The position numbers were made by a program, and so were the translations under genes. The notes below the pieces were generated by a model. It saw nothing but the letters and a program-made list of their open reading frames with translations, was not told the origin of the DNA and searched no databases. A stretch of 64,000 nucleotides of DNA from a virus. Where the stretch lies: IMG/VR virus record IMGVR_UViG_3300032069_000007, positions 1-64,000 of that record. One strand, 5' to 3'. This document shows, piece after piece, positions 23,544-46,800 of this stretch; the first letter of the stretch is position 1; each line of letters starts with the position of its first letter.

Positions 23544-25394
23544 ATGGGGCTCAGGCAACGACTCGCGGGCGCGTGGCACGCGCTCGTTGGGGGCGAACCA
23601 CAAATCACGCAGTTCATGACACCCGACGTCCAGCAGGCACTGGCGTCGCCTGAGCACGTCAGTCTCCTGTCGGCGGTATCTGAGATCGTGCCGACCCTCT
23701 TGCCGGATGTCGTCAAAGCCCTCCGCGGGCGCGATCCCCACTTCAAGCAGCTCACTGAGTTCGACTACGTCGGCCTCTACCAGGGAGTCCGCGAGCCATT
23801 CCAGATCACGACCCTGACCTTTGACCTCTTGCGCCAGGTCTCGGAGAAGTGCCCGCCAGTCGCGGCCGTCATCCTGACCCGCGCAAACCAGGTCGCCAGC
23901 TTTGCCCAGTTGCCGGACTCCAAGACCGATTCCGGCTTCAGGGTAGCGCTCCGGGAGCCCGAGGCAAAACCTTCCGCAGAGGACAAGCAGCGGATGCGCG
24001 CGCTCGAGGACGCCATCCTCGTGTGCGGCTTTACGCCAGGTGATGCATCCCGCGACGAGTATCCCGAATATACGAACTTCGAGCAGATGGTGCGAGCAGT
24101 CGTGCGAGACACGCTGACGCTCGACGCGATCTGCCTTGAAACGATCCCGGGCAGGAACGCGAAGGCGTATCCCGTCGTTCGCTGGTTTCCAGTCGATGCC
24201 GCAGAGATCCGGCTGACGAGGCCGGAGACGTACAGATCGACCCGCCAGCAGCAAGGCGATGCAGATCGGGTCATCCGGTATGTCCAGATGCGCGACGGCC
24301 GCCTCCTGTCCGAGTTTACGGCACAGGAGCTTTACTATTACAGGCGCAACCCATGCACCAACGTCCGGCGCGAGGGATACGGCACATCAGAGCTCGAGAT
24401 ACTGATCGGGGTCGTGACCGCGATCCTGTATGCGCTCGACTACAACCGCAGCTACTTCCATCGCGGCAGCGTCCCGCCCGGGATCCTCTCGCTAATCGGA
24501 AACTACTCAGACGAGCAGCTCCTGGAGTTCCGCCGACAGTGGCACGCGATGTGCCGGGGGGTCGGGAACTGGTGGAACGTGCCAGTCTTCGGCACGAGGG
24601 AGGGACAAGGCGCGGTCTGGACTCCGCTCAGAGCGACCTCGCGCGATATGGAGTACCACATGTGGCTCGCGTTCCTCATTACGATCACGTGTTCCGTATT
24701 CTCCATCCATCCGGAGGAGATCGGCATGCAGGCGTGGTCGCCCCAGAGCCGGGCGCCCCTTTCCGAACCATCGCCCGTTGCCCGGCTCCAGCAGAGTCAG
24801 GACAAGGGGCTGGTCCCCCTTCTCAAGAGCGTGCAGACGCTGATGAACGAGGCCATAGTGTGGCGGATCGAGCCCCGCTTCATCTTCAAATGGGTCAACA
24901 TCGACGACTTCGACGAGGAGCGAGACGTCCGACTCCGCCAACAGCGCCTCGCTGCAGGACTGAGCACAGTAAATGAAGAGCGCGCCGAAATGGACCTCGA
25001 GCCGTTCCCCAAGGACAAGTTCTACGGCGACGTGCCGCTGAACCCGATCTCCTTCCAGCTCTTCCAGATGTCGCCAGAGGCGCAAGAGGTGCAAGCACGC
25101 GCCCAGCAAATGATGGGCGGACCGCAGATGCCCCAGCAGGGCCAGGAAGAGGAAGAAGAGCAGCCCGGTGCCGACGAGATGCACGCCATCCTGGGCGGTG
25201 GGAAGGAACTGGCGCCGCCGGCCCCTCAGCAGGGCCAGAAGGTGCCCGGGGGCGGAGTGCCGCCGGGTGCTGGTTTGCGAGGAAAACAGATGCCGATCCA
25301 GCGGAGCCTGGCCGGGCCCAAGCGCAGGCTGTACAAAGCAGACCGTGACTATCGGATTTTCGAGGTAGTCGTTGATGACGAGGAGGAAAATTAG
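23544..25394 (+). CDS. phage portal protein
   Basis: VRDTLTLD, PVDAAEIR, GYG.SELE, YN..YF.RG..P.GIL, DMEY, TVNEERAEM.LEP. Confidence 0.9.
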   Translation: MGLRQRLAGAWHALVGGEPQITQFMTPDVQQALASPEHVSLLSAVSEIVPTLLPDVVKALRGRDPHFKQLTEFDYVGLYQGVREPFQITTLTFDLLRQVSEKCPPVAAVILTRANQVASFAQLPDSKTDSGFRVALREPEAKPSAEDKQRMRALEDAILVCGFTPGDASRDEYPEYTNFEQMVRAVVRDTLTLDAICLETIPGRNAKAYPVVRWFPVDAAEIRLTRPETYRSTRQQQGDADRVIRYVQMRDGRLLSEFTAQELYYYRRNPCTNVRREGYGTSELEILIGVVTAILYALDYNRSYFHRGSVPPGILSLIGNYSDEQLLEFRRQWHAMCRGVGNWWNVPVFGTREGQGAVWTPLRATSRDMEYHMWLAFLITITCSVFSIHPEEIGMQAWSPQSRAPLSEPSPVARLQQSQDKGLVPLLKSVQTLMNEAIVWRIEPRFIFKWVNIDDFDEERDVRLRQQRLAAGLSTVNEERAEMDLEPFPKDKFYGDVPLNPISFQLFQMSPEAQEVQARAQQMMGGPQMPQQGQEEEEEQPGADEMHAILGGGKELAPPAPQQGQKVPGGGVPPGAGLRGKQMPIQRSLAGPKRRLYKADRDYRIFEVVVDDEEEN

Positions 25395-29028: not shown

Positions 29029-30264
29029 ATGGAAGCACAAACAACGTTCGCCGAGCGCTGGGCCGTAGCGAAGGGCATCAAGTCCGACCTTGCCGACGCG
29101 CTTGAAGATGAGGAAGAGGCCGTCGCGGATTACGACGAGCAACTCGAGGAGGCCGGCGAAGGCAAACTCAGGGAAGACCTGACGGAGATCCGCGATGACG
29201 AGAAGGACCATGCGCGGCGACTCCGGCGCCATCTCAAGCGGCACGTCGCGGGCAAGAGTTTTGCCGACCGCTGGGCCCTCGAAAAGTCCAACCCGAGCCT
29301 CATCCGCCGCACGCCAGGGCATCCTGCCCACCAGGCGTTGCTGGACGTTGGGGCGCGCTACCACGGCACGATTCGCGACCCGAGAAACGGGGCAGAGCAT
29401 CACGTTTACTCAGTGCCGCAGAAGATGAACTTCCAAGGCACGGCTATTTCGGCCAACACTGCCGCGGGGTGGCACCGCCTATCAGGGAACTGGGCACCCA
29501 TGGCTACGCCCTCCCGCCACACGCACCGCTGGTCGTCATTTGAAAACCCGGAGAGAACAGCCCGACACGTGCTCCACGGGTTCACAAACCCAGAGCATGC
29601 CGAGGCCGCACTCAAGGCGACTCATCGGTTGACGCAAAAGTGGCAGAAACCTGCGGCTCTGGGATCGCCCAAGAAGTCCTTCGCCGAGCGGTGGGAAGTG
29701 GAAAAATCCCACGTCAAAGGCCATTACCGCCAACGCGGCTCCAAGCGCTCTTGGGTCAAGCCGCACGAGCGGAAGGACACTCCGGGTGCCCCGCGGCAGG
29801 AACCAGCGGCGGGTATCCAAACCCCGTACCGCACGCGACAGGAAGTGGAGCGCGAGACGTCGGAACTCTTCCGGGATGCTGACGTGATCTCGACCTACAC
29901 CCGCAAGGACGCCCTGGCAGACGGCACGCTCGTTGACCTGACAAAGTGGGCCTCATCCGGGCCGGAAGGTATGATGGGCGGCTTCAAGGTTCCGGTCGCG
30001 GTAACGTCCGCTGTCTGGGGCGAGATCAACGACATCCCGAAGTCGAAGCAGGGAATTCAGGACGTTCGGGGTCGCGCGCACGATGTGCTCACGATGGCAG
30101 TGCTTGCGGCAAGGAGTGCGAAGCCGGGTAACAGCGAAGTCCTGTTCCGCGTCATCATGGACATCTCCGCAACCCGGGGCCGATACCAGACCTACAAGTT
30201 GAACATTGGGCCAGGGGATGTGGGCGAGCCCGTTGTGACCATTATGAGGCCCGAAGAGGACTAG
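29029..30264 (+). CDS. multidomain protein: ferritin-like helical hairpin + unknown + DUF6573-like domain
   Basis: E.EAV.DY...I.DDEKDH; YTR.DALADG.LVD...PVAVT.AVW...GPGD.GEPV.TIM.PEED; KSFAERW linkers. Confidence 0.65.
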   Translation: MEAQTTFAERWAVAKGIKSDLADALEDEEEAVADYDEQLEEAGEGKLREDLTEIRDDEKDHARRLRRHLKRHVAGKSFADRWALEKSNPSLIRRTPGHPAHQALLDVGARYHGTIRDPRNGAEHHVYSVPQKMNFQGTAISANTAAGWHRLSGNWAPMATPSRHTHRWSSFENPERTARHVLHGFTNPEHAEAALKATHRLTQKWQKPAALGSPKKSFAERWEVEKSHVKGHYRQRGSKRSWVKPHERKDTPGAPRQEPAAGIQTPYRTRQEVERETSELFRDADVISTYTRKDALADGTLVDLTKWASSGPEGMMGGFKVPVAVTSAVWGEINDIPKSKQGIQDVRGRAHDVLTMAVLAARSAKPGNSEVLFRVIMDISATRGRYQTYKLNIGPGDVGEPVVTIMRPEED

Positions 30265-30274
30265 GAGGGCCAGG

Positions 30275-30433
30275 ATGGCTGAAGCCGTTCCCGAACCCGC
30301 ATTGTGGGCAGCCAAGCCGCAGCCTGACCGCAACGTCGGCGACGGGTGGCCTGCTTGGGACATTGAGTGCGATCGCTGGCGCGACCCAGAACGACCAAGG
30401 GAGCAAAGATGGCGCCGACCGAAACCGCAGTAA
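30275..30433 (+). CDS. small hypothetical protein (52 aa, below ORF track cutoff)
   Basis: RBS ggaggg then ATG; MAEAVPEPALW...KPQ*. Confidence 0.4.
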   Translation: MAEAVPEPALWAAKPQPDRNVGDGWPAWDIECDRWRDPERPREQRWRRPKPQ

Positions 30434-33400
30434 AGCCCGTTCTGGATTTGCACGACCTCGAGAAGTCGAGGGTGAGGGCGTACACCCGGCGTGGATCGAG
30501 TGGTCAGCCAGTTCAGGTTGCCGAGTATCAGACGAAGGTCCAGAAGAGACCGCAAGCCCCCGGCGGGCCGCGTCTCACGGTCGCGCGTCAGCCAGCAACT
30601 CGCTCTGCCAGAAGCCGGTTAGCCTCTGCCTCGTCGATGCGCTTCCCATCGCGCAGAAGGTCGGCGTACAGGACGTCAGCACGCACCCAGTCCGCATCCC
30701 AGGGTGAGCGGCGCTCCACGGCATCCAAGGAGGTCTTGCCTTCGTCCTCCGACTCGACCCAGGAACGGCAGACGGTGTCGCCGTCCAAAACCCAGTATGT
30801 TAGTTCGCGGTCTGGCACTGTCCGGTCCACCCCCAAGGTCATTATACCACGAACAGCAGCGGCAACGACATCGGCGGCGCTCAGCCGCAGAATATCCAAC
30901 CTCGAGAGCACCGGCAACGGTCACGAGGTCGCAAAGTATGCGGCGGCGATCGCGGCTCACCTCAAGGACGCACCGACGCCCTTCAAGGGAACGTGGGAGG
31001 ACAAGCGACAGCCGACAGGCGACATCCCGGACCTACTGCAGCTTGCAGAGAGTGCCAAGCCGAACTTTGAAGCGAGTCTGGGGAGGATCGCTGATCGGCA
31101 CGGCGGGGCTAGTGCCTGCCGCATCAAGCAGGAACAAACGCTCAGGACGCGGATGCGCGACAAGGGCCGGCCCGCTGATACCGTGACGGACATTCTCGGC
31201 GGCCGGATCATCACCGATGACCCTGCGCACATCGCTCCCGTTCTTCGAGAGTTGCGAGAACTCTATCCCGTAGTAGAGGATGAAGATAAGTTCGCCCACC
31301 CTACGTCCTTTGGCTACTGCGCCCGGCACGTGCTGGTCAAACTGCCGAGCGGCCTTACGGCCGAAGTCCAGGTCAACCTCCGAGAATCCATCGAAATCCA
31401 GGATGTCGTCAGCCACCCGATCTACGAGGAGCTTCGCGCACCGAAGCGCAGGACCGTCGAAGAGCGCCAGGCGTTGCTCGCGAAGGTGGACGAGATACGG
31501 GGCCGGTACGCCGAGGTTCTGCGCAAGGCGACTGCGGCTCTCGGATTGGTGGTCAAGTCGCTCGTTGTTCGGTCCGTTGCGGCCTTCCAGGAGGCGAAGC
31601 ACCCGCGAGTGCCACAAGGGCAGCGGGATGCCGAGGGTCGAACCGGCGGCGAGTTCGCGCCCAACCGCACCGGCAGATATACGCGGAAGGTCGTGACGCC
31701 GCGCGGCAACGTCGTCTACGTGTACCCGAAGCGCGTGGCCCAGGCCCGGCAGTCGGCCAAGTTTCGAGGGATGCAGAAGTTGGCGGGAAAACTGCCGACA
31801 ATCCGCACTGCCCTCTCGCAGGATATCCGGCGCAGGGACCTCGAGGAGCGAAGAGTCTGCGCCGTTGCAGTCGCACTGATAGACAGCCTGCACTTCCGGG
31901 TCGGCACAGAGGGGGCCGAGACCGCCGGCGAGCCGACGTACGGCGTGACGACGCTTTTGGGTGACCACGTGCGCAACACGGACGCCAAGATCATCTTCCA
32001 GTTCCGCGGCAAGAAAGGGGTCCAATGGTCGCGGGAACTCCACAAGCCCGATGACCCGGATCTGGCGAGCGCCGTGGAGCAGATCTTGAGCGGCGTCGGA
32101 CCGGACGAGCGCGTTTTCCGCTTTCGGGGCGCGCGCGGTCTCGAGCCTCTGACCGGGTATCGTGTTGAGAAGTACCTCAAGAGGTGGAACACGACGCCGA
32201 AGGCGTTCAGGACATTGCACGGGTCATACCTGGCGCACAGTGCGCTGTCACAATTTGTCAGCCAGCACCGCGGTCAGCGGCAGTCCAGGAAGCAGGTGAA
32301 AGCAGATATTCGCGAGGTCTGTAGCTATGTTTCCGCGGAACTGGGGAACACGCCCGCGATCGCGAAGCGGAGCTACATAATGCCGGAGATCATCCGAAGC
32401 TACATTGAGTCCGAGGGCACAAGGGTCGAGCCAGACCTCAAAATGGGGAAATCATTGGACGTCTGCCAGCTCTGGATTTTGGCAAACGAGCACGGTCAGG
32501 TCCGCGGGTTCCTCCACAATGCGACGGAGCACGTCGAGCGGTTCGCGGACCAGCTCGCAAAGGCCCGAGTGGAGAAGTCCGACCAGGAGGTCGAGAAGTC
32601 ACAGTTGGGGCTGCCGTACCATCTCGAAGGCGGGGTTGGCTCGGCGCACAGGGGGGCCAAGAAGCGGCTCGGCAGGCGCGCGCTGATAGTCCGGACAGGC
32701 CGACAGCCAAAAGCGGCAGGCGATCCCGACCTGTCGCGGAAGATCAAGCGCATTGTCGGAGTCGTTGATACCCGCCAATACGAGGAGATCGGCGACACGT
32801 GGAAGCCCATCGCCGGTAGTGGGACAGTGAACCAATGTGCGCGCTGCGGGAAGGACCATGAGGTTCATGCGACGGTCGAGCTTCAGGACGGCACGCACGC
32901 CGTAGTCGGCACGAGCTGCATGAAGGCCGACAACATGGAGATGGCGCTGCGCTTCGAGAAGCTCGACCGGGCGGCCAGGCGGCTGCGGCAGCTCGAAGCC
33001 GAAAAAGCAAAGTACGATAGGGAAGTGCAGCAGTACCAGGGGGCGCTCGCGGAGGTCAGGGCGATGCCGAAGCCTCCGATCGAGGTCGTTATTGCTGAGG
33101 ACCACCCTTGGTCACGGTACGAGTACAGAATGGGCGAAGCTAGGTGCTGGGGCGAGAAGCCCGATGATCCAGAGCGGCGCATGTGCGTAACATCGAACTG
33201 GGAGACGAAAGAGCTCGTGAAGCGCGGGATCCCGCACGGGCGGCGTCCTTACCCACTCCACGAATTTGACAGGGAAATCGCCAAGGTGAAAAGGCGGATC
33301 GAGGCGGTCAAGGCAGAGTCGGAAGTCGAGAAGTCCTCTCTCTCGCGCGCGCGCAAGATAGTCACGGAGATGTACGAAAATCTTTCAAGCGATGCCACGC

Positions 33401-36400
33401 TCGAGTTCGCTCAAGACGGCGAATGGTATATCGTTCCCCGCATTGAGAAGGCCGGCGCTGCGACAGCAGAACCAAAACAGAAGGAGTGGTGGTCAGGAGC
33501 TGCGACCGGAGACGAGCGCTGGATCACCGTCCATCCGGACCCGGGCAGTCCTGAGAACTACCGCCACGTCAAGGTTCGGCTCAGGCCCTCCGGCAAGTGG
33601 CACATCATCGCCGGCGGAACCGGCCTCGAGCACGAAGAGATCGTTCCGAAGCACAAACTGACGCCGGAAGAACGGGAGCGCTACGAGGAGCGCCGGAAGA
33701 AGATGGAGGGGATCCGCAAGGAGCGCGAAAAGGGCCTTGAGCGGCTGACCGAGGTGCGGGAACAGCACACGAGCGTAAAAGCCGAGCAGATGGGGATAGC
33801 ACCCACACTGACCGAGGACACGCGGCGGGCCGTCGAGCACAGGGCAGAGACACGGGCGGAGGATGCCGGCCTGACCGGAGACGACCGGGACCGGTTTGTA
33901 GCCCGCGCTGTCCACGAAGCTGAGACGCGGCACCACGCTTACGTGCGCCGGGCTTGGGATCGCCTTTACTATCAGGCTCACAAGATCGCCCAGGCAGAGG
34001 ACCCGGAGCTCGCCGTTGGCGAAATAGCGAAACGGCACGACGAAGAGGAGGATCGGGCCGCTGATGAAGCCGCGGGCAAGGTGGAATCGAGCCTGCGAGA
34101 GATGATCGGCAAGCCGGCCTCCTCGGGTGAACCGGAGGCTGAGGAGCCGAAGGCTGAAGTTGCCATCGCCGAGACCGAAAGAGCTCAGCCGATTTACCGG
34201 CCGCCGAAGGTCAAGCCGATCTCCTCCGTGGAGCAGGCTATGAAGATCATTAGCCTGGAGAAGCAATCCCGCAAGATGATCGCAGAAGGCCGGAAGGAGC
34301 TTGCGAAGCTGCCCGAGGAGGAACTGTCCGGGACAGGAACGCTCGAGCAGTTTCAGATTACCGCAGAACTTGCGGACGAGCAGGGCGCGATGGCTGCTGC
34401 TATCCGCTCCGTCGACGATGCCAGGCGCGCCAGCCTCAACTCTACGCTGGTCCGCTTGGCCGACGAAACGTTCCGATCCGAGGAGGGAGCGTACGAGCGA
34501 TACGGCAAGAAGCGGTACGACATTGGCCGGGCACAGGTCACAGGCGCCCTGGATGCACTGACCGGGATCTCTACCCGGTTTATAGGTTCTTCTTTCATAG
34601 ACAGGCCGCTGGTGGAGGCGCTGGGAGTCGAGGCTGCGGCAATGCTCGCAACCCGCGAGATTCTGCAAAAGCGTGGGAGGCTCGACTTGGACGACGTCAT
34701 AGCCGATATGGAGAGCTACCACGCGGGCGAAGCGATGAGGATCGCGCAAGAGGCCGTAGCGCAGCACGACGAGCTCGAGGGGATGCGGAAGACGGTTGAC
34801 GAATCCTCTGCGCGCGCGCTCGTTGAGGGCGGGGAGACAGGAAGGCTTTTCTCCACTGCCCAGGCCCTCGCTTTTGACGGCGAACTGAACGTAGACGCCG
34901 TAAGACACTTGGGCACGGCGATAGGATCCTTGCATGCGTCCGCGACGGTCATGGCGATGCTCCGGGCGGCGAAGTCCGGGAAAGGCAAGCTCGACGAACT
35001 CAAAGTGAACATTACAGACGAGGGCGATGTCGCTCTCATTGACAGGATGTTGCACCTCCGCGGTCACTACAAGGTCACGCACGACCCTGAGACCGGCACC
35101 ACCTCGGTCCTGCTTAATCCAAAGTCGCTGGCCCGCTACATGAAGTTTGCAGCCAAGGAGCGCGAAGAGTCCGACTACGCGAAGGCCCTGCAGAACGGCA
35201 CAGCGAAAATTGATGTCTCGGCAGCGCCGGAGGGCTGGAAGGACCGGTACACAAGCCCCATAGACCGCCAGGAGAGAGACTTCCATTGGAAGCCGATCCA
35301 GCGGCGCGCACAGGAGTTTTTCCTCAGCCAATGCACCGGCGACGACGGCGGCGCCCTGATCGACCTGGAAGTAGGAGGCGGAAAGACGATAATGGCGCTC
35401 GGCGCGATGGGATTCCTCCGCGACCAGGGGAAAGTGCAAAAGATGCTTTACATTGCACCGCAGGAGTCCCTGGTGGGCCAGGTCCTCGGCGAGGTCGGGG
35501 GATTCACCGACTGGAAGTCGAATCAGGTGCGCGGAGGCGCAAGGGCAAGTCTTGACGACATCAGGGGGCGCTATTCCGACCCTTCGTTCGTTCAGGTGGT
35601 TTCTGCCCCTACGGTGGGCGCAGACGTCCGCCGACTGGAGCAGCTTGGGGTAAACCCATCGGACTTCTTCCGCGAGCTCGGGTACGATGGAATGGTGGCC
35701 GACGAGGCCCACAAGTTGGTGTCTGGCGTCGGGGGGGGCAAGAACGCCCGCGCGCTCAGGCGTATGCGTATGCGCTACAACCTGGCGATGACCGGCACGC
35801 TCGTGACCAACGCGATCTCTCAGCCCTTCGACCTTGTCCGGTGGGTCGCGGGAGCAAAGGTGGACAGCCGTGCGAAGATTCTGCGCAAGTATGGGGAGGT
35901 CGGGCTGGGAACCACGGCATGGCAGGACGCTGTCAACGCCGACGTCCGCCAACAGGTGGATCGGCACACATTCCACGGGGCCGGGACCATCAAAGCCAAG
36001 CTCTATCGTAACGAACTGAAGGTGGGCCTCTCGGAGACGCAGCGGCAGGACCTTGCCCAGGCGGTTAAGGCGGACAAGGTGCGCCGTGATGAGTATGCCA
36101 AGTCCAGGCCAGCCACTCCCGAAAAGGCCGAGCAGGCGCGCAGAAAACTCGACTTCGACCGCGACCGCGAGGTCTTCGAGATTCTCCACAACCGGGACTG
36201 GAAGCAGAACGACAGGTTGCGCGAGATCGCAAAGACGATCAAGCGGACGGTGGCCGACAACCCTTCACAGAAGTTCATCCTAGTGGCCGATACTGATTAT
36301 GGACTCTCTGCCATCCGGTCGGTCACGCGGATGCTGGCTGATCTGGGCTACGGCGACAGGACAGCACTTTTCGCGAGTCAGGACGCCTCCGGTCAGGCGA

Positions 36401-36711
36401 TCTCACAGAAGAAGATGATGCGCGAACAGGCCCGCTTCGCGGTCGATTCTAGCTGCCAGTTCGCGGTACTTGCCGCTCCGCAGGCGATCGGGCGCAATAT
36501 GGAGGCCGCCGGAGTCTTGGTACACGTCACGCTCCCGCCGGACGCCGGGTCGGAGAAGCAGCGGACAGGGCGCGCCTGGCGCGAGGGCCGGCAGGGAGAT
36601 GTGAACGAGACGCTTTTCTATACCGACCAACATCCGTTTGATATGAGCCGCCTGCTGCAACTGAGGCGGACCGCAGGTCCGCTCGCCGCCATATCAGGAG
36701 GCCAACCGTGA
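30409..36711 (+). CDS. giant polyvalent protein: RelA/SpoT-like nucleotidyltransferase + topoisomerase IB + SNF2-like helicase
   Basis: RIK...DILGGRI...GY.ARH...AEVQV; FRVG..YGVTT, F.GKKG, K.FRT, LGNT.AI...SYI; VGGGKT, ADEAHK, MTGT, QRTGRAWREG. Confidence 0.88.
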   Translation: MAPTETAVKPVLDLHDLEKSRVRAYTRRGSSGQPVQVAEYQTKVQKRPQAPGGPRLTVARQPATRSARSRLASASSMRFPSRRRSAYRTSARTQSASQGERRSTASKEVLPSSSDSTQERQTVSPSKTQYVSSRSGTVRSTPKVIIPRTAAATTSAALSRRISNLESTGNGHEVAKYAAAIAAHLKDAPTPFKGTWEDKRQPTGDIPDLLQLAESAKPNFEASLGRIADRHGGASACRIKQEQTLRTRMRDKGRPADTVTDILGGRIITDDPAHIAPVLRELRELYPVVEDEDKFAHPTSFGYCARHVLVKLPSGLTAEVQVNLRESIEIQDVVSHPIYEELRAPKRRTVEERQALLAKVDEIRGRYAEVLRKATAALGLVVKSLVVRSVAAFQEAKHPRVPQGQRDAEGRTGGEFAPNRTGRYTRKVVTPRGNVVYVYPKRVAQARQSAKFRGMQKLAGKLPTIRTALSQDIRRRDLEERRVCAVAVALIDSLHFRVGTEGAETAGEPTYGVTTLLGDHVRNTDAKIIFQFRGKKGVQWSRELHKPDDPDLASAVEQILSGVGPDERVFRFRGARGLEPLTGYRVEKYLKRWNTTPKAFRTLHGSYLAHSALSQFVSQHRGQRQSRKQVKADIREVCSYVSAELGNTPAIAKRSYIMPEIIRSYIESEGTRVEPDLKMGKSLDVCQLWILANEHGQVRGFLHNATEHVERFADQLAKARVEKSDQEVEKSQLGLPYHLEGGVGSAHRGAKKRLGRRALIVRTGRQPKAAGDPDLSRKIKRIVGVVDTRQYEEIGDTWKPIAGSGTVNQCARCGKDHEVHATVELQDGTHAVVGTSCMKADNMEMALRFEKLDRAARRLRQLEAEKAKYDREVQQYQGALAEVRAMPKPPIEVVIAEDHPWSRYEYRMGEARCWGEKPDDPERRMCVTSNWETKELVKRGIPHGRRPYPLHEFDREIAKVKRRIEAVKAESEVEKSSLSRARKIVTEMYENLSSDATLEFAQDGEWYIVPRIEKAGAATAEPKQKEWWSGAATGDERWITVHPDPGSPENYRHVKVRLRPSGKWHIIAGGTGLEHEEIVPKHKLTPEERERYEERRKKMEGIRKEREKGLERLTEVREQHTSVKAEQMGIAPTLTEDTRRAVEHRAETRAEDAGLTGDDRDRFVARAVHEAETRHHAYVRRAWDRLYYQAHKIAQAEDPELAVGEIAKRHDEEEDRAADEAAGKVESSLREMIGKPASSGEPEAEEPKAEVAIAETERAQPIYRPPKVKPISSVEQAMKIISLEKQSRKMIAEGRKELAKLPEEELSGTGTLEQFQITAELADEQGAMAAAIRSVDDARRASLNSTLVRLADETFRSEEGAYERYGKKRYDIGRAQVTGALDALTGISTRFIGSSFIDRPLVEALGVEAAAMLATREILQKRGRLDLDDVIADMESYHAGEAMRIAQEAVAQHDELEGMRKTVDESSARALVEGGETGRLFSTAQALAFDGELNVDAVRHLGTAIGSLHASATVMAMLRAAKSGKGKLDELKVNITDEGDVALIDRMLHLRGHYKVTHDPETGTTSVLLNPKSLARYMKFAAKEREESDYAKALQNGTAKIDVSAAPEGWKDRYTSPIDRQERDFHWKPIQRRAQEFFLSQCTGDDGGALIDLEVGGGKTIMALGAMGFLRDQGKVQKMLYIAPQESLVGQVLGEVGGFTDWKSNQVRGGARASLDDIRGRYSDPSFVQVVSAPTVGADVRRLEQLGVNPSDFFRELGYDGMVADEAHKLVSGVGGGKNARALRRMRMRYNLAMTGTLVTNAISQPFDLVRWVAGAKVDSRAKILRKYGEVGLGTTAWQDAVNADVRQQVDRHTFHGAGTIKAKLYRNELKVGLSETQRQDLAQAVKADKVRRDEYAKSRPATPEKAEQARRKLDFDRDREVFEILHNRDWKQNDRLREIAKTIKRTVADNPSQKFILVADTDYGLSAIRSVTRMLADLGYGDRTALFASQDASGQAISQKKMMREQARFAVDSSCQFAVLAAPQAIGRNMEAAGVLVHVTLPPDAGSEKQRTGRAWREGRQGDVNETLFYTDQHPFDMSRLLQLRRTAGPLAAISGGQP
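30588..30818 (-). CDS. nested antisense small protein, candidate antitoxin/immunity for the RelA/SpoT domain
   Basis: MPDRELTYWVLDG...W...G.RIDEAEANRLLA; own TGgTATAAT (30849-30841) and SD GGGGGTG; host frame is Ser/Arg/Thr filler over the same span. Confidence 0.62.
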   Translation of the reverse strand: MPDRELTYWVLDGDTVCRSWVESEDEGKTSLDAVERRSPWDADWVRADVLYADLLRDGKRIDEAEANRLLAERVAG

Positions 36712-37077: not shown

Positions 37078-37416
37078 ATGTTGATGCTTATGCTAAGCAA
37101 GGAAGAGCGGTCTGCCCTGATGCGGCAAGTAACCGAGCGGATGCGGACCGTCGTCAAGGACTATCGCCGGACGCACAACATCACTCAAGCTCGACTTGCA
37201 CGCCAACTTGATTGTGGGAGTCCCGCCGTGATTGGCAACTACGAGAACGGCAAAACTATTCCCCATTTCTTCACGCTGACCCAACTGTTTCTGGTGTGCG
37301 TACAGAATGCCCCGGAAGATGTCCTCGACATGATGAGGCGTCTGGGTTTGCCGGTCGACGAGGCCCTAGTAGAGATCCGATCGGGAAGGGGGGTCCCCGA
37401 ATGCCAGCGTGGTTGA
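37078..37416 (+). CDS. XRE-family HTH regulator
   Basis: ITQARLARQL.C....IGNYENGKTIP. Confidence 0.8.
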   Translation: MLMLMLSKEERSALMRQVTERMRTVVKDYRRTHNITQARLARQLDCGSPAVIGNYENGKTIPHFFTLTQLFLVCVQNAPEDVLDMMRRLGLPVDEALVEIRSGRGVPECQRG

Positions 37417-40349
37417 GAGCGGAAGACGAAGATAAGTGGGATAAGGCGAAGGCGGCGGCAAAGGAGTCCTATCCGGACATGAAGGAAGACGATGACCGCT
37501 ACTGGGCTATCGTCACATCCATATTCAAGAAGATCGGAGGCAAGGCCGGAAAGAAGTCGCTTGCCGCGCCGACGATGGTGGTCGCCGTCGGGGGGTATGA
37601 TCCGCTGTTCAAGTCCGAGCGGCCATCGGTTACCGAACAGGGCGATAAGTTGTACATCCGCACCCCGTACCACACTGGCTTCATAGGCGACATCAGGGAC
37701 ATTCCCGGTCGGAGATGGGATCCGGACCGCAAGGTCTGGATCGTCGGCAAGGAGCACAGAGAACGGGTCGACGGCATCATAGGCAAGCATTTCCGGGAAG
37801 AGGAGCACCCGCGCGCTCCTGCTGGCCTGCCCGAAGGTGGCCAATTTGTACCCAAGGAGGGCATTGGGGCCAAGGGCCAACAACAAGCACAACCGTCGGG
37901 GGGCACGGTCGAGGGGGCGAAGGAGCCACCCACGCAGAAACAACTGGACTATATGGGCAAGTTGGTTGCGGAGCTAAGACAGGATTTGACCGATCGGCGG
38001 TTTAGTCCGCCGACGTACAATCACGGCCCGTTGCCGTTTGAGAAGCAAGCAATCCTCAATCTAAGCGATGCCTTAGAGGCGCGGCAACCTTCCCAGAGGC
38101 TTATCGAATACATCGACCGCCGATTAGCCAGCAGTCTCTTGGAGGCTATCGAATCTATGCACGACATGCCAAGGCGGCAAGCCTCCCTCGTGATCGACGC
38201 ACTCCGCAGTGGTTCCCTCCGCCAACTCGCCCAAGCGGTTGCGAACACACCGGGTTATTCGGAGGAGGCGTTTGAGGGCGCTAAGCGACGGCTCGACGCT
38301 CGCAGCGTCGACATCGTGAAGGAACTGGCCCAAGAACTCGGGGTTACGTTGACTCCGAGTGATGCTCAGCCCAGTAAGTCCTTGCGCCTCGTGCTCAAGG
38401 GGCAGTTATTCGGAACGGGCGTCCCGACCATCTACATAGTCCGCCACGGCAAGACCCACATGAACGGGGAGGGTGAACAGCCGGATCTCGTCCGCGGCTG
38501 GCTCGACCCACCGCTCGACGAAAAGGGCAAAGATGAGGCGAATAGGCTCGCAAAGGTCTTCGATTCAGTCCCGCTCACCAAGGTGTACACTTCCGATCTC
38601 AAACGATCAGAGGAGACCGCCAAGGTAATAGCTGCCGAGACGTCTGCGCCCATAGAGGTCTCTAGGGCCTTCCGGCCCTGGAACCTTGGCCGTCTTCAGG
38701 GATCCAGCTCCAGGCAGTCCACGCCCACCATCCGAAAGTTCGCAGGACAGAATCCCACTACTCCCGTGCCAGATGGCGAGTCCTTCGAGGACTTCAAACA
38801 CCGTTTCTTGGATGGCCTCAAGGGGCTAATGGACGATCTGGAGTCCGGGAAACCGCGCAGCGTCGTTATCGTGACCCACTATCGCAACCTGAAGCTCGCA
38901 CACGCCTGGGCCGCCGATGGCGGCAAGGCCGAGAAGGTCGACGTGAAGACTTTCCTCGCTGACGATATGCCGACCGGATATATCGGCAAGCTAACCTACG
39001 AAGGCGGCAAGTGGCATTTCGGAGCTGCGGAGGCGCAGATAGACGGAGCGATGCCCGAGGCCAAGAAATCTGTTTGCGGAACATTGGTAGTCGTTCTTCC
39101 TTCCAAGCGTGCGCCGGGTCCTCGGTTGGTGCTGAAGGGCCACAAGTTGCACTACCAGACGGACTTCCAGGGGATCTCCGTGTCCGTTGAGAATCGCAAG
39201 GGCAGCATCCGCCGGGGCAAGCAGAAAGGTGGCAAGGAGTGGGAAATGAAGATGTTCTACCTGTACGGCCGGATCCCGTACACCAAGGGCAAGGACGGCG
39301 AGGCCGTTGACTGCTTCATCGGCCCAAACAAGGAAAGCCAGAAGGTCTTCGTTATTCACCAGCGGACGCCAGACGGCAAGCACTATGATGAGGACAAGTG
39401 CATGCTCGGGTTTGACGATGAGGAGCACGCCCGCGACGCTTTTCTGGCGCACTACGACTCACAGAAGTTCCTCGGCGAGATCACGGAGATGGGCATTGAC
39501 AAGTTCAAGGAGAAGCTCAGTGAGACCCGCGAGTCCCCTAAGATGATAAAGAGTTTGCCGCAGCAGATCATCGTCCAGAAGTGGCGCAAGATAAAAGTCA
39601 AGGATGGCTTGACCATTCGAGTCCCTGGGGGGCCGCCAGTGGCGCCCAAGGGCAAATGCTATAAGCTAGTCATCGCTGAGGGCGCGGCGATTCAATGCTT
39701 CGCCCGGAAGGCTGATGCGGCGCGAGCGGCCAGGAAGATGAACGGCCAGGACCTGTGCGGCTTCTCATACGTGGACATCCCGACGTACCCGGACGGCAGA
39801 AAGGTTCGGGTCCACAAAGCGTGGCCGGAAGGGTCCCGTGTAGGAAGTTCCAAGGATGTCCACCGGGCCCTAAAGGAGATGGGGCACGAGGTCATCACTG
39901 GCAAGGGCGGGTTTCACATCAGGGGCAAGGGTTTTGTCTCGCTCGCCCAAGCGCGCAGGATGACCGGGATAAAGGCACCCAAGCGGAACTTTCGCGGGAG
40001 GATCGGGCCGTACGGGGATCTGGCCTGGGTAGCGGCGATCAACAGGGTCCGGGTCGGCAAGGCGCTGGATAACCCAATTCCCGTTGTGTTGGTCGAGAAA
40101 AGCGACAAGACTGAGGGCATGACGATCCGCATAAAGCACCTTACGCCGGAACAGAAGGAGCGCATCGCGAACTTGATGGGTCCCTGGCAGTGGATGGGCC
40201 ACGTTGGGACATCGCGGCCAACGGTGTTCTTCGCCGATGGGGACCGCGACTTTGGTCCGCAGGTCGAGGTAGACGGAGCACGGGTTGGAGGATTAACCCC
40301 AGATCTCGGCAAGCAGTACGAGGCGCACAAGGGCGTATTCGAGGTTTAG
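37401..40349 (+). CDS. polyvalent protein: small helical (ChaB-like) + HARP-like + histidine phosphatase + inorganic pyrophosphatase-like + unknown domains
   Basis: RRWDPDRKVW; IVRHG, TSDLKR..ET, GES, VTH; VENRKGS.R.G, YG.I..T.G.DGE.VD, DE.K.MLGF. Confidence 0.82.
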   Translation: MPAWLRAEDEDKWDKAKAAAKESYPDMKEDDDRYWAIVTSIFKKIGGKAGKKSLAAPTMVVAVGGYDPLFKSERPSVTEQGDKLYIRTPYHTGFIGDIRDIPGRRWDPDRKVWIVGKEHRERVDGIIGKHFREEEHPRAPAGLPEGGQFVPKEGIGAKGQQQAQPSGGTVEGAKEPPTQKQLDYMGKLVAELRQDLTDRRFSPPTYNHGPLPFEKQAILNLSDALEARQPSQRLIEYIDRRLASSLLEAIESMHDMPRRQASLVIDALRSGSLRQLAQAVANTPGYSEEAFEGAKRRLDARSVDIVKELAQELGVTLTPSDAQPSKSLRLVLKGQLFGTGVPTIYIVRHGKTHMNGEGEQPDLVRGWLDPPLDEKGKDEANRLAKVFDSVPLTKVYTSDLKRSEETAKVIAAETSAPIEVSRAFRPWNLGRLQGSSSRQSTPTIRKFAGQNPTTPVPDGESFEDFKHRFLDGLKGLMDDLESGKPRSVVIVTHYRNLKLAHAWAADGGKAEKVDVKTFLADDMPTGYIGKLTYEGGKWHFGAAEAQIDGAMPEAKKSVCGTLVVVLPSKRAPGPRLVLKGHKLHYQTDFQGISVSVENRKGSIRRGKQKGGKEWEMKMFYLYGRIPYTKGKDGEAVDCFIGPNKESQKVFVIHQRTPDGKHYDEDKCMLGFDDEEHARDAFLAHYDSQKFLGEITEMGIDKFKEKLSETRESPKMIKSLPQQIIVQKWRKIKVKDGLTIRVPGGPPVAPKGKCYKLVIAEGAAIQCFARKADAARAARKMNGQDLCGFSYVDIPTYPDGRKVRVHKAWPEGSRVGSSKDVHRALKEMGHEVITGKGGFHIRGKGFVSLAQARRMTGIKAPKRNFRGRIGPYGDLAWVAAINRVRVGKALDNPIPVVLVEKSDKTEGMTIRIKHLTPEQKERIANLMGPWQWMGHVGTSRPTVFFADGDRDFGPQVEVDGARVGGLTPDLGKQYEAHKGVFEV

Positions 40350-43547: not shown

Positions 43548-43828
43548 CTGTACAATATGACACTCCACCGGACATGATGCCGGAGATCAACCGCCTTCTG
43601 GTGCTCGCCGTCGGGTCGGTGAGGAGGGCGCATTTCGCGCAGGTGTTCCGGGCCGAGGTCGGGCCGCTGTTCGAGGGCCTGTCGAGCCTCCGGTACGACC
43701 AGATCGAGGAAGCGTTCCTGGACCAGATGGAGGCGGCATTCGACCTAGCTGGCAGTGTGCGGGATGCCTTTCAACTTAGAGATCGATTGACAGCGGAGAG
43801 TGACCCACAAGATGGCAACCGTGGTTAA
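43544..43828 (+). CDS. small hypothetical protein
   Basis: Coupled ORF. Confidence 0.5.
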   Translation: MTVQYDTPPDMMPEINRLLVLAVGSVRRAHFAQVFRAEVGPLFEGLSSLRYDQIEEAFLDQMEAAFDLAGSVRDAFQLRDRLTAESDPQDGNRG

Positions 43829-46800
43829 GGTCTTAGGCAGGCAGGGCAACCGGCTCAACATCGCGCGCCGGGAGTGCTCCTGCGAGGTCAAGTTGCCGTT
43901 TGGCCTGCGCTTCACCGACGGCGGCAAGATGCACCGGGTCCACGTCTGCCCGCAGTGCGAGCGCCTCCACGGGTACGAGGACATCCGTAAGGGAACCCTG
44001 CTGCGCAGTCAAGTCGTCTTCGCCCCCGGGTTGCCGCTCTTATCGAAGGCACTCGAGCTCAAGGCCGGCCAGCGCTGGGTAACGCTGCATCCGGATGCCG
44101 AGAACCCAGAAAACTACGTCCACGTCCTGATCCAAGAGCACCCCGATGGCACAGCAAGCGTCATTCGGGGAGCTGAGGGCAAGCTCAACTACCTGCGGCT
44201 GACAAAACTCAAATCGCCGGAGGACTGGCAGGAATCCGGAAAGCGCCTTGCCGAGGAGCGCGAGAGGCGGCGGAAAGAGCGTGAGGCCGCGATGACCGAA
44301 GAGGAGCGCCAGACCACGCACGACGTAGAAGCTGGCATACTGGCCCGCAAGGAGCTGGAGGACGCCAAGTACGTATCGCAGGTGATGGAGGCGCACGGGA
44401 TAGGCGAGTCCGACTGGAAGCTCGAAGAAAAGACCTTGGTAGCCCTGCCGGGGAAGTCACGCGAGATGGCCGAGAAGCAGCACCTCCGCAAGATGGTCAC
44501 GGTGGCGAACAAGCTCGTGGACCGCACGCGCAAGGATCTGCTGGACGCTCACGACCGATTGGCCGAAGCCGAGCTCGGCGATATGCCGCTCGGGGACGTA
44601 GGTATCGAGCGGCCACTCGAGGGCAAAGGAAGCGGGTATATCGCCGCAGTCGAGAACGCGGCAGAGGCGGCTGGTCTAAGCGTCAGGCAGAAGATCGCGG
44701 AGAAGGAGGACATAAGCTGGAGAGGGTTCCTTGACCGAAGCGACGGCGATCCTCTCAAGGCTGCCGAGAAGCTCGCAGCGGTCCAGCGCCTGCACGCAGC
44801 GCTCCGCGAGGTTCGTGAACCGATCAAGGAGCTCAGAACCGCCGGCCTATTGGATAGGCCGCTGAAACCGGAACTTCCGCCAACCGAGAAGATCGCTGAC
44901 ATCCTCGTGGCGCAGAAGCAGCACACCGACTACGAGCGGCAGTACCGACAGGTGAAGGGTGAGATAGAGGAACACGGGGTTCCCAAGGCCGCTCTTGAGG
45001 TCGTGACGGAACTCAGGCCGGAGGAGGTCGAGGAGATCATCAGGGCCGCTGCCGCAAAGCCCTTAGACGAGGAAGCCGCCAAGGACAAGGTCGCCGAGGA
45101 ACTGGCCGAGGATGCGATGCAGCGTGCGGCCGAGAGGCTGCTTGCGACCGCCGACAAGGAGGAGGCCCTTCAGCCACTCCGCAAATACGTGACGATGGGG
45201 CATTACGACAGTTTGAACCGCTCCTGCCTCGCGGCAACGCGCACCCCCCTGCCCCTCGGCCGTCTTCAGGCCGACATCCTGGGACCAGAGGCCAGTGCCC
45301 AGGTGCTCGCCGCCCATCTCAGAGAAACGCTCTCGGACACGGATTACAGGGCAGCACTCCACGGCGTTGCCAACTACCATCGCAACTATCAGCGGCAGGC
45401 AAGCGAACAGGCCCTCCAGTCGTACGCGTCGACAAAGCAGCAGGCCGACGAACTCTCCGAGCGCCCGATATCCGACATCGGGTCTCTTGTTGAGGCACAG
45501 GTTGCGAATGCCGACCGGATTGACCTCGTTGACGAGGCGCGGGAGACTCTCGGCGTGGCGCTCGGACGGCTGGAAGCTACGGCTGCGCTTGTCCAAGCGC
45601 TTGAGCTTCAACACGCACGCAAGGGAGTGCCGGAAGAGCTGCGGGTTCCGCTCGGTGCTATCTCAAATCAGCAGGCCATTGCGCAAGCGCGCGTGCTGGG
45701 ACTCAGCCACCCTGTCATGGAGGAGATGGAGCCGGGGGTGGAACCCGATTACCGAATCGACTCCGACGGCGTCAACAAGTTCCTGACTATCTTGCCGAAC
45801 GGGGCAGCCAAGCTCGTGACGAAGCCCGATCGGGAGCTCGCAGAGAAGCACGCACTCGCAACCGAGATCAAATCAGGTAGGCGGGATCAGAGGCACTGGC
45901 TCCCCGCAGGAATTGTCTCGAGGCCGCAGAGCACATTCGAGGATCCCGAGAAGCGCGCGGTGCAGTTCTCGGAACCGCTCGAACTCAGGCCCAAAATGCG
46001 GTATGCGGAGGTCAACCGCGGACTCAAGCACTATATCGCGCGGCGTCTAGCGGACGGCCAGGACCCTGAGAGCCTGCGTTCCGACCTGCTTTCGGCAGAG
46101 TTCACCGCGGACCTGCCGGACGATCTTCTGGGAGACGGCGGCGGATCCTACTACAAGGCCCTAAGCGACCTCGGCTGGTTCACCTACAACCAGGTAGAAA
46201 ACAAGTCCCCGGAGGGGCTGGAGGCCATAGCCGAACACGCAGTTGAGGAGTACGAACGCGAACACGGGGCGTCTGAGGAGGTCGCCGCCCTCAACTCGCA
46301 GTCCATCCCACTGAAAGACAGCCCGGTGTGCTACGAGGCTCTCTACAGGGCCGTTGCGGCTCACCCCGAAGCCAGGGTAGCGTTCAAGGCTCTCTCCGAG
46401 CTGACGCCGGAGGAGCGCGGGCTGATCCAGCGCTTCTTCTACCGGGTCATGACCGAGGAGAAGTCGCCCCAGGAAGAGGCTGAGGAGAAGAGGCTTACCG
46501 CAAGACCGACCCAGGCCCCGGCTAGGCAGGAGGCGCTGTGGGCCGAGCAAGAGGTGCCCGCAGAGACGACGGAGGCCCGGAAACCCGCCAAGCCAGGACG
46601 CGAGACCCCGTGGACCCGCTACGTCAAGGCGCAGGGATCTGTCCAACATGCCTATGAGAGTGTCCAGGACGTCATGAGAGGCGCCGTCTCGGCGCAGTTC
46701 GCCAAGCACATGGGAGGCATACTTGGCCGCGAGCTGAAGACCGGCAACAAGCGCATCGCAAACTGGGATGACCACCTTCTCGGGCTCGTTTCTCCAGAAC

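Follow-up and report, generated by a model that had tools for sequence, protein, structure and literature searches.

The question raised by this locus is whether a short open reading frame (ORF) on the minus strand, lying entirely within a large plus-strand phage gene and just ahead of the RelA/SpoT-like domain that this gene encodes, is a gene in its own right, and whether its product is the immunity protein of that domain. A first-pass annotation of the DNA had put the ORF forward as an immunity candidate for the adjacent domain, and this proposal is supported by a predicted complex, by a fold search in which the immunity protein Tis1 ranks second, by a homologue of 55% identity and by sequence composition. 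It is probable that the ORF encodes an immunity protein of the Tis1/IapK type and lies antisense within the ORF of the toxin itself. Such antisense nesting would be a new arrangement of a known kind of toxin-immunity pair. Toxicity of the RelA/SpoT-like domain is assumed throughout. The features of the locus are collected in Table 1; "the window" denotes the whole stretch of 64,000 nucleotides that was analysed.

Table 1. Coordinates of the plus-strand gene, the nested minus-strand ORF and their associated features
Feature	Position	Strand	Remarks
Polyvalent protein gene	30409..36711	+	2100 aa from ATG 30409, SD AAGGGAG
N-terminal tag of the plus protein	30409..30587	+	Coding in the plus frame
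Ser/Arg/Thr-rich stretch of the plus frame	30588..30917	+	54-57% S+R+T, pI 11.9; plus-frame translation across the minus ORF
RelA/SpoT-like (toxSAS-like) nucleotide pyrophosphokinase fragment	30919..31599	+	Used for co-folding; Pfam core 31120-31425
Predicted contact patches	31159-31173; 31297-31317; 31411-31467	+	DKGRP loop; H..TSF.Y acceptor loop; helix and basic loop
Core small ORF	30588..30818	-	76 aa, GTG 30818 to stop TGA 30590-30588
Upstream open part of the minus frame	30819..30917	-	Holds alternative starts
Extended -10 promoter consensus TGGTATAAT	30849-30841	-	
SD-like site GGGGGTGGA	30834-30826	-	7 nt 5' of GTG 30818

The plus-strand gene and its RelA/SpoT-like domain

The plus-strand gene combines a RelA/SpoT-like domain with a topoisomerase IB and an SNF2/DEAD helicase, and with several unrelated conflict and DNA-processing domains in one ORF its product is a polyvalent protein. 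It follows the portal gene within the block of head genes, and the neighbouring ORF carries InPase and His_Phos_1 domains with PHROG matches to minor head and DarB-like proteins. The protein might be packaged in the virion, a possibility on which the position in the head block and the matches of this neighbour bear. The Pfam profile RelA_SpoT (PF04607) matches residues 252-353 of the 2114-aa frame (E 1.5e-8) and is followed by Topoisom_I and ResIII/DEAD; with a score of 35.4 bits, above the cut-off of 27, the domain is a divergent member of its family. Alignment with Rel (1vj7, E 0.013) places R-I-K, D-I-L-G-G-R, G-Y-C-A-R-H and E-V-Q-V at corresponding positions, and we take the roles of the RxK motif, the acidic residue of DxxGxR, the GY..H acceptor loop and the glutamate of EVQ to be those of the Rel structures. 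In the same alignment, the basic residues that hold the phosphates of the guanosine acceptor in Rel are not conserved in the phage domain. A PADLOC search with the enzyme fragment returned one weak match, PDC-S33 (E 1.3e-4). No short proteins homologous to the N-terminal 440 aa of the plus-strand product were found in a search for them.

The N-terminal tag is coding in the plus frame, since of the codon changes that separate it from the close relative L002, 11 are synonymous and 4 non-synonymous, and a 27-nt indel between the two preserves the frame. The stretch that follows, presumably a disordered linker, is unusual in composition: its combined share of Ser, Arg and Thr (Table 1) compares with a window mean of 19.6% (sd 5.4) and a next highest value elsewhere of 38%; about 18,500 plus codons hold no second linker of this kind. 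The plus frame must be read through this stretch, because ATG 30409 is preceded by a strong, conserved SD and no in-frame ATG, GTG or TTG occurs between 30775 and 31153. A plus gene starting only after the minus ORF, in the plus direction, is ruled out by the same lack of starts and by the position of the RxK motif before 31153.

The minus-strand ORF and its signals

The 76-aa acidic ORF described in the first-pass annotation as the reverse complement of the Ser/Arg/Thr-rich stretch is present as such, with a product of pI 4.4. The minus frame is open from TGA 30923 to its stop and offers several starts, namely TTG 30917 (109 aa), ATG 30842 (84 aa), GTG 30830 (80 aa) and GTG 30818 (76 aa), with TTG 30836 as a further alternative. 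A TATAAT-type box and an SD had likewise been described, and both were located (Table 1), exactly at the onset of the minus-frame coding signal. In the window, 2 sites of the type TGNTATAAT are observed against 0.2 expected, and the TGGTATAAT box is identical in L002, L004 and L005. The SD-like site is kept in relatives, and none of the four close relatives has lost the ORF, its start codon, this site or the -10 box. The promoter search found no -35 box for TGGTATAAT and returned no full two-hexamer promoter, and no terminator was found for the minus ORF. The upstream open part of the minus frame is probably promoter and leader rather than coding sequence, since its coding log-odds are 0.0 per codon (compared to +0.31 in the core), its minus-frame substitutions relative to L002 are radical, and the AlphaFold2 (AF2) model of the 84-aa form leaves residues 1-11 without structure.

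The length of the ORF proves nothing, as it is ordinary for its register. It was correctly pointed out earlier that the ORF does not lie in the codon-aligned shadow register (the third positions of minus and plus codons coincide), yet this carries no evidential weight, because 29 antisense open stretches of at least 110 codons arise in the same register within the plus genes of the window. Furthermore, in an ORF-preservation simulation the probability that either frame stays open given the other is about 0.25, in both directions.

Coding statistics and substitutions

The codon and amino-acid statistics of the stretch resemble those of a minus-strand gene and are the most extreme in the window. 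The minus core has coding log-odds of +0.311 per codon, a value reached by none of 1525 shadow windows of the same register (mean -0.34, sd 0.143, maximum 0.17), while the plus frame at 30588-30917 scores -0.243, below every other window of the plus genes (minimum -0.183). Synonymous codon usage given the amino acids is -1.095 in the minus frame, typical of real genes (mean -1.049), and -1.339 in the plus frame of the same stretch, within the lowest 5%. These composition tests are confounded, as a Ser/Arg/Thr-rich linker would by itself mimic a minus-strand gene: the stretch that comes second in this respect, 59215-59815 with log-odds of +0.17, consists of Ala/Ser/Val/Arg repeats of a real plus protein, for which reason it was rejected as a second nested gene.

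Substitutions between the window and L002 amount to 16 synonymous and 6 non-synonymous in the minus frame and to 13 and 9 in the plus frame, counts that cannot separate the two frames because third positions are shared and the four close relatives covered by the test hold too few independent changes. Two first-position Leu changes between CTG and TTG are silent in the minus frame and alter Arg/Lys in the plus frame. A BLOSUM comparison of both frames using the more distant homologue P0002 favours neither frame.

Homologues and predicted fold

The first-pass annotation had named a lack of homologues as a ground for doubting the ORF. This was not borne out: a phmmer search of 1.8 billion representatives recovered P0002, a protein of 115 aa with 55% identity (E 1.4e-20), to which a 66-residue core aligns without indels. 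The most conserved block, ADxLxADLLRDG, is also the main predicted contact segment. The family is tiny, with P0001 and P0002 as homologues of the small protein, and consists of two 50%-identity clusters known from metagenomes only; no additional relatives emerged from a profile search with A2, no match from tblastn and blastn against the phage collection, and no variants beyond the L004-like type from the contigs of four sediment-metagenome DNA runs.

A resemblance in sequence to small proteins that follow RelA/SpoT toxin domains, suggested earlier, found no backing in profile searches. At the sequence level no family for the small protein was found in Pfam (including PF24154, Tis1_ImmP), PHROGs, NCBIfam, PADLOC or the PDB sequences, among whose matches the 6ox6 chains are absent; hmmscan of all members of A1 with E up to 10 gave no family either, and PF24154 matched nowhere in the entire phage record translated in six frames, at the same E limit. 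In the ESM Atlas, the product has a recognition value of 1996, below the level of most known families, and its best matches (0.87-0.88) are unnamed clusters. A Tis1_ImmP lead in the same resource is weak (rank 28, score 0.82, 11% of cluster members) and did not recur when P0002 was the query.

From an alignment of five sequences, AF2 models the minus-ORF product with a pLDDT of 73.4 and a pTM of 0.62, compared to an uninformative pLDDT of 44 from the single sequence, and the predicted fold of the core is beta-beta-beta/alpha-beta-alpha. In a fold search with a tool other than Foldseek, Tis1 (6ox6_B) ranks 2nd of 48,161 chains, aligning over 63 of 76 residues with an rmsd of 3.9 A, 21% identity and a Z of 4.6, which is below the value of 8 under which the tool warns that a match can be a common arrangement. 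Foldseek found nothing below E 0.37 in the PDB. In BFVD, similar small uncharacterised phage proteins occur (best TM 0.62-0.70, E 0.014).

Predicted complex with the RelA/SpoT-like domain

Co-folding of the small protein with the domain, which the first-pass annotation had placed at about 31000-31520 and suggested as its folding partner, predicts a complex in each of three runs (ipSAE 0.81, 0.81 and 0.80), compared to 0.14 for the best of 3 controls; the pLDDT of the partner is 80-81 and contact agreement is at least 94%. The ipSAE mark applied is reached by 58 of 80 solved complexes and by 2 of 110 mismatched pairs, a calibration that holds only roughly here because the co-fold used the alignment of the present analysis. 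In addition, the result may partly reflect likeness to the Tas1-Tis1 complex, which is already solved (6OX6), rather than binding of the phage pair.

On the enzyme, the predicted interface comprises fragment residues 81-85 (DKGRP), 127, 129-131, 133 and 165-183. The predicted contacts include H127, T129-F131 and Y133 of the acceptor loop, and Y133 corresponds in the alignment to the Tyr of Rel (1vj7) that stacks on the acceptor. The acceptor site is the one blocked by Tis1 and IapK (PMC11782079, PMC12226406). The small protein is therefore predicted to bind the RelA/SpoT-fold domain at its pyrophosphate-acceptor site, as Tis1-like proteins do.

Alternative explanations

A sceptical reading holds that only the plus frame is functional, encoding a conserved basic Ser/Arg/Thr-rich linker that might, for example, bind DNA in the capsid. 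Coincidence or model artefacts would then account for the minus ORF and its TATAAT box as well as for both predictions, of fold and of complex. The many open antisense stretches of the same register, the simulated openness of 0.25 given the plus protein, the neutral substitution and BLOSUM tests, the poor single-sequence model, the low ESM Atlas recognition and the lack of any family match all agree with a chance shadow ORF. However, a sequence that is not a protein would not be expected to fold at a pLDDT of 73-81 and to give an ipSAE of 0.81 where controls give at most 0.14, nor to rank Tis1, the one solved immunity protein of a RelA/SpoT toxin, 2nd among the chains searched. The stretch is moreover 55% conserved and free of indels, whereas the flanking tag carries a 9-codon indel between relatives (75-92% nucleotide identity in these segments), and neither the S+R+T composition nor the coding log-odds, which exceed all null windows, has a counterpart elsewhere in the plus codons or the null. 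A shadow ORF is on balance unlikely.

Much of this evidence argues for a real protein irrespective of its function, and the minus-strand product could instead have a regulatory role, help to assemble or activate the RelA/SpoT domain, or inhibit host defence toxins of the toxSAS class (CapRel or FaRel type) in place of the phage's own enzyme. Binding is no proof of inhibition, the fold match to Tis1 is weak, and the relatives by fold in BFVD are uncharacterised. Against another role, the small protein is predicted to sit over the catalytic cleft of the domain from its own phage, on the acceptor loop and the basic loops, which is the inhibitory mode of Tis1 and IapK (PMC11782079, PMC12226406), and nesting directly beside the domain fits a cognate pair, so that we regard such a role as quite improbable. 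The ORF might also be the relic of an immunity gene that was captured in reverse as the plus ORF extended, still recognisable and no longer expressed or needed. The missing terminator and the very small family are in line with such a history, which nevertheless appears very improbable given that four close relatives retain the ORF together with its start, the SD-like site and the -10 box, that the ORF is open in the 55%-identical lineage, and that minus-frame changes are mostly silent or conservative.

Proposed mechanism

If the ORF is an immunity gene, as we favour, the host RNA polymerase would probably transcribe it from the extended -10 promoter that precedes it, and its product would bind the RelA/SpoT-like, toxic small alarmone synthetase-like domain encoded directly beside it. 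Inhibition would be achieved by covering the pyrophosphate-acceptor site, with its stacking-Tyr loop, and the adjoining basic surface. The targets of Tis1 and IapK make (p)ppApp, and by analogy an adenosine 3'-pyrophosphokinase is a likelier identity for the enzyme than a tRNA-modifying toxSAS. The inhibitor would silence the enzyme in the producing cell while the large protein is synthesised, and it might also shut off delivered enzyme after early infection. In the plus frame the nested gene would be read as the Ser/Arg/Thr-rich linker between the N-terminal tag and the enzyme domain.

The chances seem about even that these 231 bases are coding in both directions in the full sense, with the forward strand specifying the disordered linker of an injected polyvalent toxin-enzyme and the reverse strand, under a host-type promoter, its immunity protein. 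If so, we are aware of no earlier example of a protein immunity gene that lies antisense inside the ORF of its cognate toxin. Dual coding would mean that recombination cannot separate toxin from immunity. The pair could act as a timer, in which the delivered enzyme works until immunity expressed from the incoming DNA accumulates, and the immunity protein would also protect the cell while the toxin of the next generation is made.

Relation to known systems

In pore-forming colicins, the immunity gene is transcribed against the direction of the toxin gene and adjoins the toxin ORF, whereas the phage candidate lies inside it. A close parallel is Tas1-Tis1: Tas1 is a (p)ppApp synthetase effector of the Pseudomonas aeruginosa type VI secretion system (T6SS), and the 76-aa Tis1 binds its acceptor site (PDB 6OX6; PMC11782079). 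The phage pair is predicted to share the placement of a small protein on the acceptor loop of a RelA/SpoT fold, with the two small proteins aligning over most of their length, but it differs in that PF24154 does not match the phage protein and the fold Z is only 4.6. Furthermore, Tas1 is a PAAR-linked effector and its immunity gene lies downstream on the same strand, while the phage toxin is a domain of a polyvalent protein with the candidate antisense inside its ORF.

The phage head-associated MuF-Apk2 likewise carries a RelA/SpoT-like (p)ppApp synthetase domain and is bound by a small immunity protein, IapK (PMC12226406). The resemblance to the MuF-Apk2/IapK/Aph1 modules (PMC12226406, PMC5576092) lies in a large, head-gene-associated protein with a RelA/SpoT-like domain and a small candidate inhibitor. 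The toxin domain of Apk2, however, lies C-terminal to MuF, and the same strand continues with iapK and aph1; the domain studied here instead occupies a position close to the N-terminus of a TopoIB-SNF2 polyvalent protein, with its candidate inhibitor nested antisense. MuF-Apk2 modules belong to temperate phages, and no integrase was found in the present record, which is 93% complete; no Aph1-like hydrolase gene was identified in it. Expression of the small gene as a moron during lysogeny is unsupported, since neither a tyrosine nor a serine integrase was found in the record.

Tis1-like antitoxin domains accompany toxSAS enzymes that produce (pp)pApp (PMC7229694, PMC11782079). The toxSAS modules in general (FaRel/AT2faRel, FaRel2/ATfaRel2, PhRel and CapRel) share with the phage pair a RelA/SpoT-fold enzyme and a dedicated structured protein inhibitor, but they are bicistronic and the phage pair is not an operon, and the predicted fold of its small protein is neither that of a pZFD nor that of a Panacea antitoxin. 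With the candidate inhibitor on the opposite strand and within the toxin-bearing ORF, the locus falls outside the type II toxin-antitoxin operons.

Polyvalent proteins that contain RelA/SpoT domains have been described (Iyer et al. 2017, PMC5512222), and the plus-strand product resembles them as a giant multidomain protein with RelA/SpoT, helicase and other conflict domains. The InPase domain of the neighbouring ORF is typical of polyvalent proteins as well. In a term search, PMC5512222 yielded neither an inhibitor nor an immunity gene that would accompany such RelA/SpoT domains, nor any antisense-nested gene. Embedded antisense overlapping genes have been reported in bacteria without a known functional link to the gene they overlap (PMC9927249, PMC8850804). 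The minus ORF resembles them as a protein-coding ORF antisense to another, and differs in that its product is predicted to bind the protein of the gene in which it resides.

RelA/SpoT-fold enzymes paired with an inhibitor have thus been described among T6SS effectors, in toxSAS modules and among the MuF toxins of temperate phages, and in every case a neighbouring gene on the same strand encodes the inhibitor. If the nested gene is real and encodes such an inhibitor, this phage has packed it antisense into the linker of the toxin-bearing gene. Whether embedded antisense protein-coding genes truly exist in prokaryotes is still under debate, and the locus would be a clear example of one whose function can be interpreted. 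It would also imply that RelA/SpoT domains of polyvalent proteins are dangerous enough to require immunity, in support of the idea that they are delivered weapons, and that annotation pipelines forbidding nested genes on the opposite strand would overlook such inhibitors.

In favour of a real nested gene, the same genome holds a second minus-strand gene in an open plus frame, which encodes clear Pfam matches to HNH_3 (E 3.8e-10) and HTH domains and belongs to the intein of ORF 43800-51371.

A small ORF within a polyvalent-protein gene

The 76-aa ORF on the minus strand at 30588-30818 is probably a real gene, predicted from structural modeling to encode the cognate inhibitor of the adjoining RelA/SpoT-like domain, resembling Tis1 and IapK, the immunity proteins of Tas1 and MuF-Apk2. 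The viral record, obtained from sediment metagenomes, comprises 80,287 bases with 61% G+C, the window being its first 64 kb, and nearly all long genes of the window are carried on the plus strand. ATG 30409, preceded by AAGGGAG at a site kept in relatives, is the most plausible start of the plus gene containing the minus ORF. Judged by its domain matches, 30409-36711 has the architecture for which Iyer et al. (PMC5512222) use the term polyvalent protein, and RelA/SpoT is on their list of domains for this class. The phosphatase domains of the next ORF are a candidate parallel to Aph1 of Apk2 modules, in that they may act on the RelA/SpoT product. Upstream, a 411-aa ORF (29029-30264, +) has a C-terminal DUF6573 (E 1.3e-26) and weak N-terminal ferritin-like matches (Rubrerythrin, EncFtn); in relatives its middle is swapped or diverged, and its two ends match the window at 89-91% identity.

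Coordinates of the nested ORF's signals, its host gene and other features
Feature	Position	Strand	Evidence or remark
Portal gene	23544-25394		block of very large ORFs downstream
Polyvalent-protein ORF	30367/30409 to 36711	+	in this block, downstream of the portal gene
RelA_SpoT	aa 252-353 of 2114-aa frame	+	Pfam, 35.4 bits, E 1.5e-8
Topoisom_I	aa 458-668 of same 2114-aa frame	+	Pfam, E 9e-26
ResIII/DEAD	aa 1640-1812 of same 2114-aa frame	+	Pfam
Next ORF, InPase and His_Phos_1	37212-40349	+	E 7e-41 and E 9.5e-32; PHROG matches to minor head and DarB-like proteins
Promoter-like box TGGTATAAT	30849-30841	-	extended -10
Second antisense gene, 340 aa	47524-48546	-	Pfam, HNH_3 (E 3.8e-10) and several HTH

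The minus-strand frame runs without interruption from 30917 down to its stop codon (30590-30588), with possible starts at TTG 30917 (109 aa), ATG 30842 (84 aa), GTG 30830 (80 aa) and GTG 30818 (76 aa). The first-pass annotation had described a 76-aa antisense ORF before the RelA/SpoT-like domain, provided with a TATAAT-type box and an SD and lying outside the codon-aligned register. All of this holds: the ORF is nested in the plus ORF, the box is present, an SD-like GGGGGTGGA lies 7 nt ahead of GTG 30818, and minus third positions coincide with plus third positions. The pattern TGNTATAAT occurs twice in the window against 0.2 expected, the only other site being TGCTATAAT at 11496-11504 (+), inside ORF 10965-13313. 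Neither a -35 box nor a terminator was found for the minus ORF.

The plus frame is read through the minus ORF, since 30775 to 31153 holds no plus-frame ATG, GTG or TTG and the enzyme's RxK motif is encoded before 31153, and since 30409-30587 (+) evolves, on sequence comparison, as coding sequence (11 synonymous versus 4 non-synonymous codon changes, with one indel of 27 nt that keeps the frame). Within the N-terminal tag of the polyvalent protein, at 30435-30463 (+), the window has 27 nt or nine codons (PVLDLHDLE) that are missing in three related segments (L002, L004 and L005) and in a contig of run X4. Across the minus ORF the plus translation is 54-57% Ser+Arg+Thr, with a pI of 11.9, a composition without parallel among about 18,500 plus codons, where this content averages 19.6% (sd 5.4) and the next highest value is 38%.

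Coding potential of the minus frame

The length of the minus ORF is no more than chance would give. Within the window's plus genes, 29 stretches of at least 110 codons are open in the same register, and when synonymous codons are resampled so as to keep one protein, the opposite frame remains free of stops in roughly a quarter of cases, whichever frame is fixed; the case for a gene therefore rests on other evidence. These figures favor a chance shadow of the plus gene, a reading that is unlikely overall. On a log-odds scale contrasting codon tables of all plus genes with those of their shadow in this register, the minus core resembles a real gene, at +0.311 per codon where real gene windows average +0.255 (sd 0.105), and none of the 1525 shadow windows comes as high (mean -0.34, sd 0.143, max 0.17). 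A caveat is that a Ser/Arg/Thr-rich linker would itself give a minus-gene-like codon score, and a genuine Ala/Ser/Val/Arg repeat protein (59215-59815) reaches +0.17. A real minus-strand gene with another role is somewhat less probable again, and a relic is very improbable.

Further statistics bear on the preferred reading, a gene for a cognate inhibitor. The minus-frame score falls to 0.0 upstream of 30818, precisely at the promoter-like box, and over the core the plus frame comes to -0.243, the lowest of all plus windows. Given the amino acids, synonymous codon choice is ordinary in the minus frame (-1.095) and in the lowest 5% in the plus frame (-1.339). The second most antisense-gene-like codon statistics of the window are found in the region of ORF 58555-60123 (522 aa), with a 162-codon open antisense stretch (59559-60044); here 59100-60000 (+) holds a long run of degenerate repeats, each of about 25-30 aa and with much Ala/Ser/Val/Arg/Gly, so that a structural protein with a repeat fold is more probable than a nested gene.

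Conservation in relatives

Both frames are open in all three close relatives compared, L002 (IMG/VR), L004 and L005 (both JGI metagenomes), which share 75% to 92% nucleotide identity with the window over these segments. The first-pass annotation would have counted a lack of homologues against its reading, and a phmmer search of 1.8 billion cluster representatives returned two real clusters: P0001, 92% identical, and P0002, a 115-aa protein with 55% identity (E 1.4e-20). The other matches were repeats or low-complexity. P0002 aligns to the 66-residue core with no indel; of the four Trp it has three, and both the YW.LDGDT.CRSW block and ADxLxADLLRDG are present in it, unlike the neighboring plus-frame tag, which shows a 9-codon indel already among close relatives. 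Furthermore, JGI gene calling picked the minus ORF in P0001, P0002 and P0007, which derive from separate JGI/IMG contigs.

Because the two frames share third positions, the selected frame is hard to tell. Over the 76 codons of the core, the window and L002 differ by 22 substitutions. Read in the minus frame, 16 of them are silent and 6 alter the amino acid; the corresponding plus-frame counts are 13 and 9. Two fall on the first base of a Leu codon (CTG/TTG), leaving the minus product unchanged but switching Arg/Lys in the plus frame. The pattern leans toward the minus frame, statistically not significantly, and a BLOSUM comparison with P0002 favored neither frame. Radical minus-frame changes occur upstream of GTG 30818.

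Predicted fold and complex

AF2 modeled the minus product poorly from the single sequence, with a pLDDT of 44; from the five-row alignment A2 it reached 73.4 (pTM 0.62), giving three beta strands followed by helix-strand-helix, with order setting in near residue 12 of the 84-aa form. Foldseek gave no match for this model in the PDB. In an exhaustive VIA-align search of 48,161 representative chains, Tis1 (6ox6_B) ranked second (rmsd 3.9 A, 63 of 76 residues, 21% identity), at a Z of 4.6 that is low and means little alone. Even so, so high a position of the immunity protein of a RelA/SpoT-fold toxin is notable, and it agrees with the predicted acceptor-site binding. At the sequence level, neither PF24154 (Tis1_ImmP) nor any other library searched matched the minus product; the likeness to small proteins following RelA/SpoT toxins, proposed in the first-pass annotation, was not seen there.

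A controlled co-fold of the enzyme fragment 30919-31599 (+) with residues 26-109 of the minus product gave ipSAE values of 0.81, 0.81 and 0.80, versus 0.14 for the best of three controls, with a partner pLDDT of 80-81 and contact agreement of at least 94%. Of 80 solved complexes 58 attain the ipSAE mark, as do 2 of 110 mismatched pairs, counts that are only rough here because a custom alignment was supplied. Since the Tas1-Tis1 structure is solved, the pass may partly reflect likeness to a known complex; neither chain has detectable sequence similarity to 6OX6. The predicted interface on the enzyme comprises the DKGRP loop (fragment residues 81-85), H127, T129-F131, Y133, which by alignment to Rel (1vj7) is the acceptor-stacking Tyr, and residues 165-183. 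The main contact segment of the small protein (residues 80-93) is its most conserved block. The small protein has an acidic pI (4.4), the enzyme fragment a basic one (8.5). The proposal that the ORF is the antitoxin of the adjoining domain is thus supported by prediction, through the co-fold and the Tis1 rank, and stops short of proof.

Proposed mechanism and precedents

The 76-aa protein would be expressed from its own extended -10 promoter, with transcription starting near 30834 and translation at GTG 30818. It would bind the RelA/SpoT-like domain, block the acceptor site and protect the producing cell, and possibly also turn off the delivered enzyme after entry. As no integrase was found in the record, a lysogen-protecting role is unsupported. 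The analogy with Tis1 and IapK makes a (pp)pApp synthetase the more likely identity of the enzyme. Occlusion of the acceptor site is how Tis1-like domains and IapK inhibit enzymes that produce (pp)pApp (PMC11782079; PMC12226406), whereas in tRNA-targeting toxSAS it is the ATP donor site that pZFD antitoxins block (PMC11782079). The present pair would resemble Tas1-Tis1 in its predicted acceptor-site binding, but differs in having no detectable sequence similarity to it.

The toxin-immunity logic itself is already known. The literature search returned nothing like an immunity gene nested antisense in the toxin's own ORF, and we know of no description of this arrangement inside a polyvalent protein. 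In the phage head-associated MuF-Apk2, a RelA/SpoT-like toxin domain and a small binding immunity protein have been shown experimentally (PMC12226406; PMC5576092). In addition, the second antisense gene, which is better attested than 30588-30818 as an antisense gene in an open plus frame, sits in the intein region (Intein_splicing, E 4.5e-20) of a 2523-aa helicase ORF (43800-51371, +), so that this phage tolerates real antisense genes in read-through filler. Both this gene and the MuF-Apk2 precedent raise the prior for the proposed reading.
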